From NCBI GenBank assembly GCA_951406725.2, contig OX597819.1:85312001-85376000 (forward strand): 64,000 nucleotides of DNA. Reading direction: 5' to 3'. The DNA is from Octopus vulgaris (taxonomy: Eukaryota). Shown here in pieces: positions 37,735-64,000 of the stretch; the first letter of the stretch is position 1, and each line of letters begins with the position of its first letter. The translations under genes and the position numbers were made by a program. Below the pieces are notes generated by a model that was not told the origin of the DNA, ran no database searches, and saw only the letters and a list, made by a program, of their open reading frames with translations.

Positions 37735-38501
37735 ACAATACACACACATGCAAGGACAATCAACACATGAAAGAATGGAATAGTGAAATTATACAATGAT
37801 GATGGAACGGCCACCCCAGCCTCGCTCCCGGGTGGTTACGTTATTTAAATTATTTCAACAGTTTTTCAAAATTATTTTAACAGTCTTCAAATGTTCTTTT
37901 CAAAATTATTTCAATAGTTCTTTTGAAACTAAAACTCTAATTACCATTTTATATATTTTATATAGTTCTTAATTTCCTCATAGTTCAACCCTGGAGCGCT
38001 GGGTTCGAAATTCACATCGGGTCCCAGTGGGTTTATATCTGATGGGAAAGCCTCTTTTAACTTTCTATACTTATCTTTTTCCATCAAAATCCATCTCGTT
38101 TCCTTATCGTAACCATCCGAGAGGTCCACTTCAACAATGTCTGTCGTTTTAGTTATTTTCCTTTCTATTTTTTTGTGTCGACCGATATGTTATCAAATAT
38201 ATTCTGATAAGTATAGAAAGTTAAAAGAGGGTTTCCCATCAGATATAAACCCACTGGGGCCCGAAGTGAATTTCGAACCCAGCACTCCAATGGTGAACTA
38301 TGAGGAAATTAAGAACTATATAAAACGGTAAGTAGAGTTTTTTTTTGAAAAGAACTGTTAAAATAAATTTGAAAAGAACTGTTGAAATAATTGAAATAAC
38401 GTAACCACCCTGGAGCGGGGCTGGGGTGGCCGTTCTATCTTCATTGTATAATTTCACTATTCTATTATTTCATGTGTTGATTGTCCCCGATGTGTGTATT
38501 G
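37735..38501. repeat. Imperfect inverted repeat (arms about 37735-38075 and 38206-38501) formed by two 3' ends of the ORF1-only family
   Basis: Both arms encode DKYRKLKE.FPSDINPLGP.VNFEPS..NYEEIKNYIK on opposite strands and share the UTR. Confidence 0.85.
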
Positions 38502-46134: not shown

Positions 46135-47852
46135 ATAATATTAGGTTGTATAACTCCAAATTTACAGGGAAAAATTCAATTTAGTATGAAATCAAATTTC
46201 ACAATATAAATACATAAAATATAAATTAGAGATAAAACCACTAATATACAATTCAAACAATGATAGACATAAACCAAAACATAAATAACAAATAAAAAAT
46301 ATTTTATAAAACATATAACTGGATCACAAATAGTATAAAAATGAATAATCAATATATAATAACTAAAAAAAACTACGTACGTTTCATGGCTATAATTAAA
46401 TTCAAATTACAATTAAATTTAAATCTAATTGAAATGAATTCAATTTAAAATTATGGTCAATCTTCAGGTTAACAATAATAGTTAAATAAATAAGCAAATA
46501 GAGCTAAATAATATTTATTTAAAAAATAAATAACATAATAATTTTTCTTATAGAAGAAACTCCATTAACTAAATTTGAAACTTAAAACATTAGGATCAGT
46601 TTCCTACAATACATTTATTATGTTAAATATTTAAGGTAAAAAAAAATAGAGTAAATAGATAGAAAAATGTATTTATTTGTGAAGATATAATTTAGCTTAA
46701 AAAACATTAATAAGCTATAGAATACCTTTAACCTACTTATACTCCAATATTTAATTACCAATCTATTTAACAAAACATTCACTCTTAATATTCTTAGATT
46801 TTAGCTCACATATAATAATTATAAAATAACAAATACATAAAAAAAGTATCTAAATTATAATCAACAAATATAGTAATTAAAAATCTTTATTTTTTTCTAT
46901 CAATAAACATATAAACATATAACCAATAAATAAATTAGTCCATTATTATTTACATAAATATTATAGATATCTTTAGAAGAAATTTATGAAATACAATTTA
47001 AGAATTGAACAATTCCAAAATAAAAACGTATAACCTATCTTTATAAAATAATTATTATTACTATTATTTTTCAATCTAGATCGCAAAATGACTAACTAAT
47101 ATCTTAAAATTTACGTTCAGATATAATAATTATAAACTAATAATAATTAAATAAATGCATATATCTAAATTATCATTAACAGATATATAAAAATTATAAA
47201 TTCATATTTAACAATCAATAGTTATATAGAGTGCAATAATATTTCTTAAATAAAAAAAGTTTACTTATCTCTCAAAAAGCGTATCTTTAACTAAAAAATT
47301 TCAAAACGGTAAACGTCTTATTAAGCGTTTATAAAACCTCGTGGAATTACATTGTTTACAGGAATAGAACAAAAAGATGGAAATATACATTTTATCAATG
47401 AAAACTACGAATATCTTTTAGCTTTAATAGATAAAGAGAATAAAGTCACTAATAGAGAATAGAATCACGATACACTATAATATCTTTCACTAGAAAACTA
47501 AAATTTAGAATTAACTAGGATAAATTATACTCAAATCTCCATAAATTAAAATAATTTATATAACTACTATTTACTGTATATTCTCTAATAATCTTATACA
47601 AATTTTTTATTTCAAATATATAAATATGGTTACGTTGGATCTCCCTCACTCTCTTTCTTTTCTCAGTACTTAATGTCCCAAATAAATTATGTACATACTC
47701 TTTCCAACCTACCTAACAAATACAGAAACAACAATTGCAGTTAGATGGACATCTTAAAAGAACCACATTTATTGAACTATTTATTTGACCCTAACGTTGC
47801 TACTTTAACCTAAATTTGCACAATAGTGGTTTTATCTCTAATTTATATTTTA
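46135..47852 (-). mobile_element. Very AT-rich non-coding PLE-like insertion with a hammerhead and an inverted terminal segment
   Basis: Hammerhead at 46371-46470(-). 29-bp inverted repeat at 46215-46243 / 47824-47852. Bounded by microsatellites. Confidence 0.55.
46371..46470 (-). ncRNA. Type I hammerhead ribozyme-like motif with a long AT-rich stem II
   Basis: AAC-CTGAAGA-T-TGACCATAATT..AATTATAGCCA-T-GAAAC-GTAC-GTA-GTT. Confidence 0.65.
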
Positions 47853-47866
47853 TATATATATATATA

Positions 47867-48979: not shown

Positions 48980-48986
<7 letters not shown>

Positions 48987-49354
48987 CAAACAAGAAAATG
49001 GTGGAGAACAATAGGTTGTTCATCAACTTTTGGACATTAAAATGTTAACTTATTTATTTATTAAACTGATAATTATAATAACATACATATAGCATATAGC
49101 ATATTATTCTTTACATATAAGATATAAGATATAAAATATATTAATATATAAGGATACCGATAATTATTATAAAAAATATTTACCAATTTATATTCAAGTT
49201 TTATCTTATATCTTATATGTAAAGAATAATATTCTATATGCTACATGTATGTATGTTATAATTATCAGTTTAATAAATAAATAAGTTAACATTTTAATGT
49301 CCAAAAGTTGATGAACCACCTATTGTTGTCCTCCATTTTCTTAGTTGCGATATA
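48980..49354. repeat. Fold-back inverted repeat (arms about 155 bp, spacer about 60 bp)
   Basis: atatcgc..catcaacttttggacattaaaatgttaacttattta.. is mirrored as ..taaataagttaacattttaatgtccaaaagttgatg..gcgatat. Confidence 0.9.
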
Positions 49355-49525
49355 AATTAATGGTAAAATATCTCTTTACCTTCACCCATTTAGTACACTA
49401 GGTAATGTAATTGCAATGCAATAAAAAACACTTGTGTATTAATAACTGGGTATTCTACCAGCAGTATATTGTATAGATATTATCCCTTAGTGTGTTGGAT
49501 TCATAACCCCTAATTTTCTTGGAGT

Positions 49526-49568
<43 letters not shown>

Positions 49569-57062: not shown

Positions 57063-58008
57063 ATGTATATTTTAATAATTGGGCTACAGAACATAATATT
57101 AAGGTAACAGTTTGAAATTTGAATAAGTTTGTATACAGTTGTGAAATGATAATACTGACATTCGAGTAAAACCTTTTGTATAGAAAAGTTTAATTAATCA
57201 TTTATGATAATTTTGAGATTTAATAAATTTGAATGATTGCTTAGATTAGTTCTCAATCGTCTTTGTTCACGCGACACGTTTTGATCTTTCAAAATCACGG
57301 ATGCCATCGAATATTACATTACATTTATAGTATACCATATAGCCACCTTCAAATTTCTGATAACGCCTTAATGATTTTTTACAGCTTGTTTAGAGTAAGA
57401 CTGTGCAAGACTGTGCGAATTTCTTCTCTTTAACTGCATGGTGTGTAAATATATCACGGTATATTTTTAGCAACATTTTAAATCTTTGTGATATCTAGTG
57501 ATGGATTCTGATGTGTATGAGTCTGGTTTCAAATGCAATTCTGGAGAATCGAAGCGGCAAATTTACCTTGCTCATTTTGCGATAATTTTCTGAAATAGTG
57601 TTCAGTTTATGTTATAATGTTGTTATAATGTTTTTAATGTATGTAGGGAAGGCTATTTACTTAGCTGATATAGTTTCTATAAGGTAGTGAAGATTTGTAA
57701 AACTATTTTGTCTCAAAGTCAAAAATGTAATGAAATCGTCTCATTTTCCCCCTCCCCCACACGTAAATGTATAGTTCTTTTTTGGAACGGTGAAACTCTC
57801 TCTCTCTCTCTGTCTCTCACACACATGAGAAAAATAGATGACAAAGAAATAAACGATTATCTTATGAACTTCATTATTTTACAGCTGTTTCCGCCATAAG
57901 ATGTGGTGGACTCATAATTGAGTGCCTGAGTAACACCTTTTAGCCTCATCAGAACCTCAAACATGAGGTGCACTTCAAACACACACACGTATATATGTGT
58001 ATGTTTCT

Positions 58009-61473: not shown

Positions 61474-63218
61474 TCTGATATTATCTGATGATAATATCTG
61501 ATATGCTAAATAGAACTGGATGCGGATATAAATGTTACGGCAAAACGATCAGCCACCTTTTATATATGGATGACCTAAAACTATACGCTACAAATGACAA
61601 ACAGCTGGAAACACTATTAAAGACAGTTCATGGATTTACCAAAGAAATAGATATGAAATTTGGATTAGAAAAATGCGCCAAAGTAACCATGAAAAGAGGA
61701 AAACTAGTTAAGAGTAACAACATCACACTAGATAAAACCAATGAAATAAAAGAATTAGACCAAAGCCAAACTTACAAATACTTAGGAATCCATGAACTAG
61801 ATAAGACACAACACACACAAATGAAAGAGAAAATAAAAAAAGAATATTATAGACGAGTTAGATCAATACTAAAAAAGAGCTCAATGCTAAAAACAAGATA
61901 ATAGGTATCAACACTTTAGCTGTCCCAGTTATAAGTTACAGATACAATATCCTGAACTGGACACGAAATGAACTGTCCAAAATAGATAGGAAAACAAGAA
62001 AAATACTGACAGGATCTAGGATGCATCACCCAAAATCTGACATAGAAAGACTATATATACAACGTATAGAAGGTGGTAGAGGCCTTATACAGCTGGAAAA
62101 CTACTATAAAATAACCACCATAGGACTGCAAAAATACCTACTTCAGAAGGAAGGAAAACTGATCCAGATAGCAGCAAAACACGAGCAAAACAAAAAACTG
62201 TTCTCAGTATTTAAGGAAGCTGACAAATACAAACAAGAAATCATACCACCTAATAAACACAAAGAAGAAGAAGATGATGAAGAAACAACAAAAGCTATAA
62301 AACAAATGAAATCCAAACTAAAAATAGAACAGCAACGAGCCATGATAAAACGATGGCAAGAAAAGCCCCTTCATGGTAAATACTGCACTAAACTAAACGC
62401 AAAAGAAATAGACAAAGAAAAATCTCAGCAATGGTTGAGAAGCTCAGGACTCAAAGCAGAAACAGAGGGATTTTTAATTGCAGCACAAGACCAAAGCCTC
62501 CCCACCAGAAATTACCAAAAACATGTAATGAAAAGAAATATTACAAGTAACTGCAGAATATGTGGAGATGGACAAGAAACAATAAATCATATTATCTCTA
62601 GCTGCCCAGTCCTGGCTAAGAAGGTATATATTCACAGACATGACAAAGTTGGAACCTACATACATTGGAAGCTATGCCAACATTATGGAATAACAACAGA
62701 AAAAAGATGGTATAGGCACACACCAGAAAAGGTCACAGAAAACGAGAAAGCAACCATACTCTGGGATATGCCGATACACACAGATAGAGAAATTAAGGCC
62801 AACAGACCAGATATAGTTGTCAGAGACCATGAAGAAAAAAATGCTTTCTAATGATGTATCAATACCGGCAGATGACAACGTGTCTCTAAAAGAAATGGAG
62901 AAACTCTCAAAATACAAAGACCTGGAAATAGAGATAACTAGAATGTGGAACCTGAAAACAGAAACAATTCCTATCATAGTAGGTGCATTAGGCATGATAA
63001 AAAAATATTCAGACAAATACATAACAAAAACACCAGGACTTACAAACACATATAACATACAGAAAATTGCACTACTAGGCACTGCACACATCCTACACAG
63101 AACACTTTCCATACAATAACCATCAGAGCATCACAACAAATCACAGCACATACCCAAGGCACACAGAGCTGCGCTCGGTAGTGAAGTGAAAGCACGCTAT
63201 AAAAATAAAACTACTGAA
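61471..63218 (+). mobile_element. 5'-truncated R4/Dong LINE (same family as 14791-15506)
   Basis: HLLYMDDLKLY, YKYLG, PLHGKY, CRICGDGQETINHIISSC, RHD and RPDIVV. (TAA)n on both sides. Confidence 0.93.
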
Positions 63219-63331
63219 TAATAATAATAATAATAATAATAGTAATAATAATGTATGTATGTATATATATATATAATATTATTAGTGAATTGAAGAAATG
63301 GAGTTGAACGAAGATTGAACAGAAATCGTTT

Positions 63332-63424
63332 TATTGCATTCTACACGTGTTTCGAAAGGCACAATTTACCAAATTCCGATTGAATAATGAGACCATATTG
63401 TGTCTTTCTCTTCAGGAAGAAATA
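63332..63424 (-). ncRNA. Type I hammerhead ribozyme (mirror copy)
   Basis: Exact reverse complement of 63702-63794. Confidence 0.75.
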
Positions 63425-63701
63425 GGAAATCCGTTGGAAAAAACAAAAACAGAACAGAGGCGGAGCAAAACAAATCGAACGAGGCTCCTAAGAGCCCATG
63501 GCCAAACTGTTTATCAATGTATGTTGAAAACGGGTGGTGGGTGCGTTGAAGATTGTAACGGGTCCCGTTAAAATCTTCAACGCACCCACCACCCGTTTTC
63601 AACATACATTGATAAACAGTTTGGCCATGGGCTCTTAGGAGCCTCGTTCGATTTGTTTTGCTCCGCCTCTGTTCTGTTTTTGTTTTTTCCAACGGATTTC
63701 C

Positions 63702-63794
63702 TATTTCTTCCTGAAGAGAAAGACACAATATGGTCTCATTATTCAATCGGAATTTGGTAAATTGTGCCTTTCGAAACACGTGTAGAATGCAATA
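63702..63794 (+). ncRNA. Type I hammerhead ribozyme with a canonical core
   Basis: TATT-tc-TTC / CTGAAGA / GAAAGACACAAT..31 nt..ATTGTGCCTTTC / GAAA-CACGTG-TA / GAA-tgc-AATA. Predicted cleavage after GUA at 63784. Confidence 0.8.
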
Positions 63795-64000
63795 AAACGA
63801 TTTCTGTTCAATCTTCGTTCAACTCCATTTCTTCAATTCACTAATAATATTAAAATTCAATTATCCGCACCAACGCACGGTTGCAACACCATATGGTTGT
63901 ACCTCCAACCGTGCTGTCTTCTGCTGTGATTTTTGCTACCAAGGTATCGGTGAAACTTTTGATTAATCTGCAACGAGATTATTCATCTTTCTATTTCACA

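Follow-up and report, generated by a model that had tools for sequence, protein, structure and literature searches.

Penelope-like elements (PLEs) of the Hydra clade belong to the C-terminal EN+ PLEs and, as described by Craig et al. (2021, PMC8557442), have DKT in place of DKG, an RWK motif, no CCHH motif, a CxCx5C linker and a preference for (TA)n. The same work treats inverted 5'-truncated pLTRs and tails as standard PLE features, and its supplement lists the Hydra-clade element Penelope-13_HM with a 5'-truncated inverted copy and a hammerhead on both strands. Palindromic head-to-head junctions in the Penelope families of Adineta vaga have been read as the product of self-priming, and small-RNA silencing is discussed for the same families (Arkhipova et al. 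2013, PMC3846280). Metazoan PLE hammerheads are described as type I, with a short palindromic stem III, dimer-dependent and weakly active; opposite-strand pairs 100-700 bp apart were reported from Schistosoma in the same paper (Cervera and de la Pena 2014, PMC4209133). The Poseidon PLE of Anolis, PAc, cuts and extends both target strands in vitro, using two fixed internal RNA starts that match genomic tail ends, and its hammerhead is protein-assisted and dispensable in vitro (Frangieh et al. 2024, PMC11167929). Tandem retrozymes have also been tied to PLE pLTRs (bioRxiv 10.64898/2026.07.22.740005). Head-to-head pLTRs, both-strand hammerheads and palindromic junctions are, on these accounts, already published for PLEs, including a Hydra-clade element.

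The locus considered here lies at the right-hand end of a 64,000-nt stretch of the Octopus vulgaris genome (contig OX597819.1, positions 85,312,001 to 85,376,000; the window). It contains a palindrome with arms of 289 nt (63274-63562 and 63564-63852), a 1-nt apex (T63563) and a single mismatch between the arms (63555/63571). Recomputation recovered each of these values as given in a first-pass annotation of the window, and the palindrome is confirmed as a real feature. In the rest of the window, the best palindromes with a loop of at most 10 nt have arms of at most 50 nt, and the largest of these sit in simple repeats. The palindrome forms part of an insert of 725 nt (63276-64000), flanked on both sides by (TA)n, which reads from left to right as (TA)n, inverted arm, direct arm with 150 extra nucleotides, and (TA)n (Table 1). 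The left end of the element lies at about 63276, the outermost 2 bp of the palindrome being chance TA pairing. On the right the insert continues 150 nt beyond the arm, up to 64000, and is followed by a 59-nt run of (TA)n.

Table 1. Parts of the two-armed insert and its flanks. Coordinates are window positions unless a contig is named; u, position in the 3734-nt family unit.
Feature	Coordinates	Strand	Remark
Left (TA)n target run	63262..63275	.	preceded by an older non-LTR retrotransposon's (AAT)n tail
Inverted tail-less pLTR arm	63276..63562	-	outer end is the fixed internal family site u3584
Type I hammerhead motif, mirror copy	63339..63418	-	
Apex T	63563..63563	.	compared with the PLE family sequence
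Direct pLTR arm	63564..63850	+	u3298-3584, 5'-truncated 3' UTR of PLE
Type I hammerhead	63708..63787	+	core, stems, predicted cut 63784/63785
150-nt tail	63851..64000	+	stops at the second fixed family end, u3734
Right (TA)n run	G000:C6:85376001-85376059		directly beyond the window edge

Other repeats lie next to the insert and elsewhere in the window. Immediately to the left of the insert (61479-63252), a non-LTR retrotransposon (RVT_1, zf-RVT) is represented by its 3' end, which is frameshifted and terminates in (AAT)n. Right after the insert (G000:C6:85376021-85376653) lies a 633-nt fold-back element, 87% self-complementary and placed between (TA)n runs, which looks like a DNA-transposon MITE. 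Nested inverted repeats with arms of 113-120 nt (93-94%) are present at 37754-38486.

The arm sequence gives 1624 first-look candidates in the 2.8-Gb assembly. Longer copies contain, upstream of the same 3' sequence, a single ORF of 895-908 aa, and of the 30 best loci, 23 have this ORF (about 900 aa, RT plus GIY-YIG-type) intact. The family unit is 3734 nt long (u1-3734), with an ATG at u50, the end of the ORF near u2760 and a 3' UTR of about 970 nt, with a short repeat inside it and the predicted hammerhead cut at u3518/3519. The suggested link to PLEs holds, the same 3' sequence directly following intact RT-EN ORFs. The first-pass annotation had also reasoned that an adjacent PLE ORF downstream would reduce the palindrome to an ordinary inverted pLTR. 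Such an ORF is present in the longer copies, upstream of the apex, whereas none was found in the 64-kb window or in the 19 kb downstream of the insert. Over 437 nt the window's direct arm and the 3' end of an intact copy (L065) are identical at 429 positions, which together with the single arm mismatch agrees with the recent insertion proposed at first. By its sequence the insert is a 5'-truncated copy of an abundant young PLE family, a known kind of element.

The RT part of the ORF contains the motifs FDxxxFYPSI and YRDD. In L065, where the ORF is 904 aa long, DKT lies at 122 and RWL, a variant of RWK, at 37. The endonuclease has AVY..YVG and R..H, with one C between AVY and YVG and without CCHH, and the C-terminal CxxC..E..N..CxH appears as CNLCVSE..N..RCPH in most copies and with RFPH in L065 (last C to F). 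Searches with the ORF returned 107 homologues, one of them from Argonauta, with 31-44% identity at the top, and most carry the same motifs. Among homologues of at least 670 aa, DK[TS] is found in 66/66, RW[KR] in 54/66 and the CxCx5C linker motif in 46/66. The octopus family differs in the last of these: CxCx5C is absent from all 11 EN regions found by motif search among 23 loci, where a stretch rich in Ser and Asn stands instead, together with the conserved run NAVLISExNP..RIRF. In L065 the Ser/Asn-rich linker spans residues ~640-785; it is lineage-wide in the genome, and (TA)n targeting is kept. An Atlas search gave, as a lead, RT-containing eukaryotic clusters at 0.92-0.96, with RVT_1 clusters at 0.95. 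Since Pfam returned no family for the ORF and a PDB sequence search no match, the probable assignment of the family to the Hydra clade rests on motifs, homologues and the Atlas lead. The absence of CxCx5C may be read as a secondary loss, and the lineage is therefore filed as a Hydra-like variant.

Shared with the Hydra clade (Penelope-13_HM, Hydra-1_Obim; PMC8557442) are the single RT-EN ORF, DKT, an RW motif, the lack of CCHH, the C-terminal CxxC and CxH, the (TA)n target and a canonical hammerhead. Relative to the clade as described there, the unit is longer (3.7 kb vs <3 kb), the protein reaches 904 aa with Ser/Asn-rich inserts, RWL replaces RWK, the CxCx5C linker is missing, the tail measures 150 nt instead of the usual 30-40, and stem II of the hammerhead is long with a 31-nt loop. 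Compared by eye, the hammerhead and the N-terminus of Hydra-1_Obim, as published, are unlike those of the present family, which is therefore a different one. Single RT plus GIY-YIG-type ORF, inverted 5'-truncated pLTRs, optional tail and pLTR hammerhead motif, the feature set of PLEs, are all found here. pLTRs from partial tandems are found too, with tandem units in L068 and L188/L189. At G000:C1:119514367-119525313, four same-strand hammerheads spaced 3624 nt apart mark a head-to-tail full-length array with intact ORFs (L188, L189), a candidate source locus.

Across the genome, the tail-less end followed by (TA)n has 302 exact matches and the tailed end followed by (TA)n has 1117. Both patterns included TA, and ends recovered without TA in the query likewise adjoin (TA)n, so that the proposed role of (TA)n as target is upheld. 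We sampled 90 of the 302 tail-less-end matches, all on contigs C1-C5, 30 as 1.5-kb flanks and 60 as 8-kb stretches; they are 90 of 100 listed ends, of which four were left out as adjacent or already included and the last six omitted. Two arms are the norm among these copies (71/90), the opposite arm ending at u3705-3734 and in 62 cases at u3733-3734. The other 19 comprise seven single arms beside TA, five that reach the edge of the stretch and seven of other kinds. There are thus two fixed outer ends, 150 nt apart, at u3584 (or nearby u3577/u3586) and u3734, and inner ends that vary between copies. Either arm can bear the tail or the ORF.

These copies bear on whether the palindrome might be a fold-back chimera of sequencing or assembly. 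Among the contig matches listed, no independent record spans the exact apex or the flanks, which an artefact would explain. A chimera would, however, mirror the tail and the flank, whereas here the flanks differ, the left arm halts at a fixed site of the family, and one base distinguishes the two arms. Many other apices are represented by fold-back joints in contigs of three independent DNA runs, from separate studies; in two of these runs, loose ends of (TA)n occur at u3577 or u3584, the tail-less sites. We consider an artefact exceedingly unlikely.

Classification of 69 two-arm copies (the 71 minus two complex loci) revealed several arrangements. In 19/69 the arms are symmetric within 10 nt and nearly spacer-less, against 4.8 expected by permutation (p<1e-4); with the u3340-3365 hotspot removed, symmetric copies number 14/49 against 3.3 expected. 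The tail-less arm is longer in 21/69 and the tailed arm in 13/69, and in 16/69 the arms do not overlap at all. Anchoring the sample on the tail-less end inflates the class with a longer tail-less arm and cannot create non-overlapping copies. Overall the tail-less arm reaches further upstream in 37/69. Of the non-overlapping copies, 13 have a tailed arm of only 30-55 nt; these arms cluster at u3680-3705 and have the length of the classic PLE "tail". Like the window copy, eight copies have arms that both span the whole hammerhead with a loop of at most 10 nt. Three further near-spacer-less palindromes have arms of ~280-370 nt, and the arms of L069 measure 3124 nt.

Microhomology of at least 2 nt is seen at 32 of 42 insert-free junctions, compared with 17% at random, and inserted bases occur at 27 of the 69 junctions. 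The two arms of a locus diverge by 0.7% and arms of different loci by 3.1% (40 loci), with the within-locus difference below the median in 38/40. Private alleles are common to both arms in 15 cases and confined to one arm in 36. Inner ends have a hotspot at u3344-3360, which holds 20/85 tail-less and 9/69 tailed inner ends. It corresponds to about 63610-63626 in the window and adjoins a short AAACAGTTT palindrome; an RNA 5' end or transcription start, an RT stop or a palindrome effect is possible. The hammerhead cut site as a truncation hotspot finds no support, because only about three inner ends fall within 1 nt of u3518/3519.

We therefore propose, as the likely origin of the insert, a PLE copy in (TA)n whose two arms were reverse-transcribed from one RNA, primed on both target strands. 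A GIY-YIG-type endonuclease would make cuts in both (TA)n strands, and of the two 3' ends so released one would prime at u3734 and the other at u3584; the RNA at each site is AU-rich and might base-pair with a TA primer. The 3' ends of the two cDNAs would be joined, presumably by microhomology, and filled in. Where both cDNAs halt at about the same place, for instance where the shared RNA begins or is broken, the product would be a palindrome without a spacer. In every two-arm copy, both DNA strands run out of (TA)n into antisense sequence of the element that begins at a fixed site, as expected from both-strand priming. In L1 twin priming, the second target strand primes internally, giving an inverted 5' segment with a microhomology joint; the internal site is variable and the arms barely overlap. 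Here, unlike L1, the internal site is fixed and the overlap of the arms often amounts to hundreds of bases or more. Both-strand priming agrees, by analogy, with the in vitro behaviour of PAc (PMC11167929), which resembles the octopus family in its two fixed RT starts, tailed and tail-less ends, cutting and extension of both strands, AT-rich target and pLTR hammerhead. The PAc starts lie inside the ORF, whereas here both fixed ends are upstream of the next ATG (u3734 by 49 nt).

The first-pass annotation had instead proposed snap-back priming, in which the palindrome arises by self-priming of one strand within the same PLE family; asymmetric copies would then come from later central deletions. 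The 19 symmetric apices among 69 are its best point, and five symmetric copies have identical inner ends at short native palindromes, e.g. TTTCGAAA or GGCTCTTAGGAGCC. The alleles common to both arms agree with it too, as does junction microhomology, which fits deletion repair equally well. The idea is not new: self-priming is the published reading for the Penelope families of Adineta vaga (PMC3846280). Those families share head-to-head inverted pLTRs, junction palindromes, an optional tail and Asn-rich linker inserts with the octopus family, and differ in their low copy number, in their short palindromes of 18-38 bp and in that self-priming is presented there without a copy-level test. Snap-back requires that synthesis of the copied arm stop at the same fixed site and that the arm be joined to (TA)n every time. 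Because the tail-less arm must lie within the tailed cDNA, snap-back fails for the 37 copies whose tail-less arm reaches further upstream unless later deletions are invoked, although the symmetric copies fit it. Even among the latter, the tail-less arm extends further in than its supposed template in 7/19, and in the window copy the apex T matches the tail-less arm. The 13 short tailed arms of the non-overlapping copies end ~100 nt beyond palindrome reach, and non-overlapping copies are not older than symmetric ones (private alleles 0.30% vs 0.40%); both points argue against deletion, the age comparison having low power. Snap-back may apply to a subset of copies, possibly including the window copy, and as a general account we regard it as unlikely.

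Both-strand priming makes its own demands. We infer that the excess of symmetric apices reflects both cDNAs stopping at a shared RNA end, a reading supported by the u3344-3360 hotspot in both arms; the excess is also predicted by fold-back, and both-strand priming needs the extra assumption of a shared stopping point. Arms of one locus could alternatively be so similar because two RNAs of a single source gene were copied, or because of gene conversion. For the window copy the sole mechanistic clue is one base: T63563 matches the continuation of the inverted, tail-less arm, and the next C is compatible with either arm (1-nt microhomology). New are the fixed arm ends 150 nt apart and, with them, the 37 copies whose tail-less arm reaches further upstream, 16 of these without overlap; simple snap-back cannot produce such copies, and both-strand priming appears to fit them best. 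Also new is that a lineage without the Hydra CxCx5C linker still inserts into (TA)n. A literature search by titles and term counts, covering few subscription papers, found no paper applying twin priming or snap-back to PLEs.

Each arm was initially annotated as carrying a type I hammerhead, and all named parts of the motif are present on both strands. On the + strand these are the core CTGAAGA (63711-63717), stem II (63718-63729/63761-63772; 11 of 12 pairs, 31-nt loop), GAAA (63773-63776), the stem III sequence CACGTG (63777-63782) and GTA ending at 63784. The core of the mirror copy on the - strand is at 63415. The hammerhead pattern has 1865 exact matches in the genome. Rfam gave no match at gathering score across the window and, at E<=10, ten matches with no hammerhead family among them; the miRNA matches reflect the hairpin only. 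A set of 14 diverged hammerheads from the same genome keeps CUGAnG, CGAAAC and GUH. Their stems I-III covary, with 95.6% of cells paired (29-50% in slid controls), 8/10 pairs changed on both sides and 0/500 shuffles doing as well, a count that is not a probability because the 14 are related sequences. In 12/14, stem III consists of six self-complementary nucleotides (CACGUG, CAUAUG, CAAUUG). A further hammerhead-like core, CTGATGA ... GAAA CAGCTG TA, with a poor stem I, occurs at 57952 (-) next to a (TA)n run.

The claim that the RNA can fold as an active ribozyme fares less well, and modelling makes it doubtful. The active hammerhead fold differs from the minimum-energy fold (z=0.57), and the whole insert is predicted to fold as a 287-bp duplex (-524 kcal/mol). 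For stem II, the predicted pair probability is ~0.06 when the arm is folded by itself and 0 when the insert is folded as a whole. As a monomer, stem III is predicted to have one C-G pair and a palindromic loop, and as a dimer a duplex of -12.3 kcal/mol; the palindromic stem III thus implies a dimer, and only one sense hammerhead is available per strand of the insert. A read-through transcript is accordingly predicted to contain a single, masked sense ribozyme. The hammerhead is likely an ordinary pLTR ribozyme carried along in duplicate, whose cleavage would need a second sense copy or protein help. Type I architecture, a short palindromic stem III, dependence on a dimer (here predicted) and opposite-strand pairs also characterise the metazoan PLE hammerheads described in PMC4209133. 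Twenty sequencing runs contain the family, all as contigs, 11 of them RNA by guess or record; the sole run recorded as RNA is a metatranscriptome (share 0.33). The insert was also considered as a non-LTR retrozyme and rejected: those described (bioRxiv 10.64898/2026.07.22.740005) are short non-coding units in head-to-tail tandem, whereas the insert is head-to-head, with one sense hammerhead per strand and an autonomous parent.

The first-pass annotation had gone further and suggested an undescribed class of (TA)n-associated fold-back ribozyme retroelements. Such a class would be non-autonomous and move as a hairpin unit. In its favour, short copies with two arms number in the hundreds, and the same layout recurs in at least two further families of the window. 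Yet all arms are fragments from the 3' region of a PLE that encodes an ORF, the window's own arm being the 3' pLTR of an autonomous, probably Hydra-clade PLE with its ORF in longer copies. Apices vary by copy, also in the further near-spacer-less cases, so the hairpin is not the replicated unit; among the 69 copies, repeated use of one apex or of the hotspot was seen in only two pairs. Such a class seems highly improbable to us.

Three other intervals had been grouped with the insert. Two of them, 46135-47852 and 48980-49354, indeed share its layout of fold-back and one-sided tail beside (TA)n. The first, extending to 47863 on the - strand, is a long 3' part of another PLE family, with a type I hammerhead at 46467 that has CGTACG as palindromic stem III; its inverted piece (47816-47863) is 48 nt long and its two fixed ends lie ~64 nt apart. 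This family has a very AT-rich 3' UTR of more than 2 kb, and a Hydra-like EN lies upstream in 2/10 loci (L214, L215). The second, 48980-49529, folds back on itself, lies between (TA)n runs and has a tail of ~170 nt on one side only. Its family has 1929 first-look candidates, no canonical hammerhead was found in it, and its parent element is, as a guess, Naiad-like. The part 48980-49354 was tried as a DNA MITE, which the shared one-sided tail rules out. The third, 226-260, is no fold-back and belongs to a short, abundant (TA)n-ended repeat (127-262, -) with a variant minimal core (CCGACGA or CTGACGA) and the stem GAGC/GCTC, matched in about 17 loci examined for other reasons; it is either SINE-like or PLE-derived.

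The feature itself is ordinary PLE anatomy, and its value lies in the data set that it opens. Craig et al. (2021, PMC8557442) name the origin of tandem and inverted structures and the microsatellite bias as unsolved. A young family that has many copies with intact ORFs, primes at two sharp sites and offers hundreds of resolved junctions makes both questions testable. The data favour both-strand priming over the published self-priming idea and weaken the proposed link of the linker zinc finger with (TA)n targeting. Tentatively, and with somewhat less confidence than we place in the origin of the insert, the family may show that inverted pLTRs of PLEs arise by twin priming of one RNA at fixed sites, with palindromes forming at a shared RNA end, that (TA)n can be targeted without the linker zinc finger, and that the genome holds hundreds of hairpin loci with masked ribozymes, a possible source of dsRNA. 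If this is true, the long hairpin loci could feed dsRNA to editing or small-RNA pathways.
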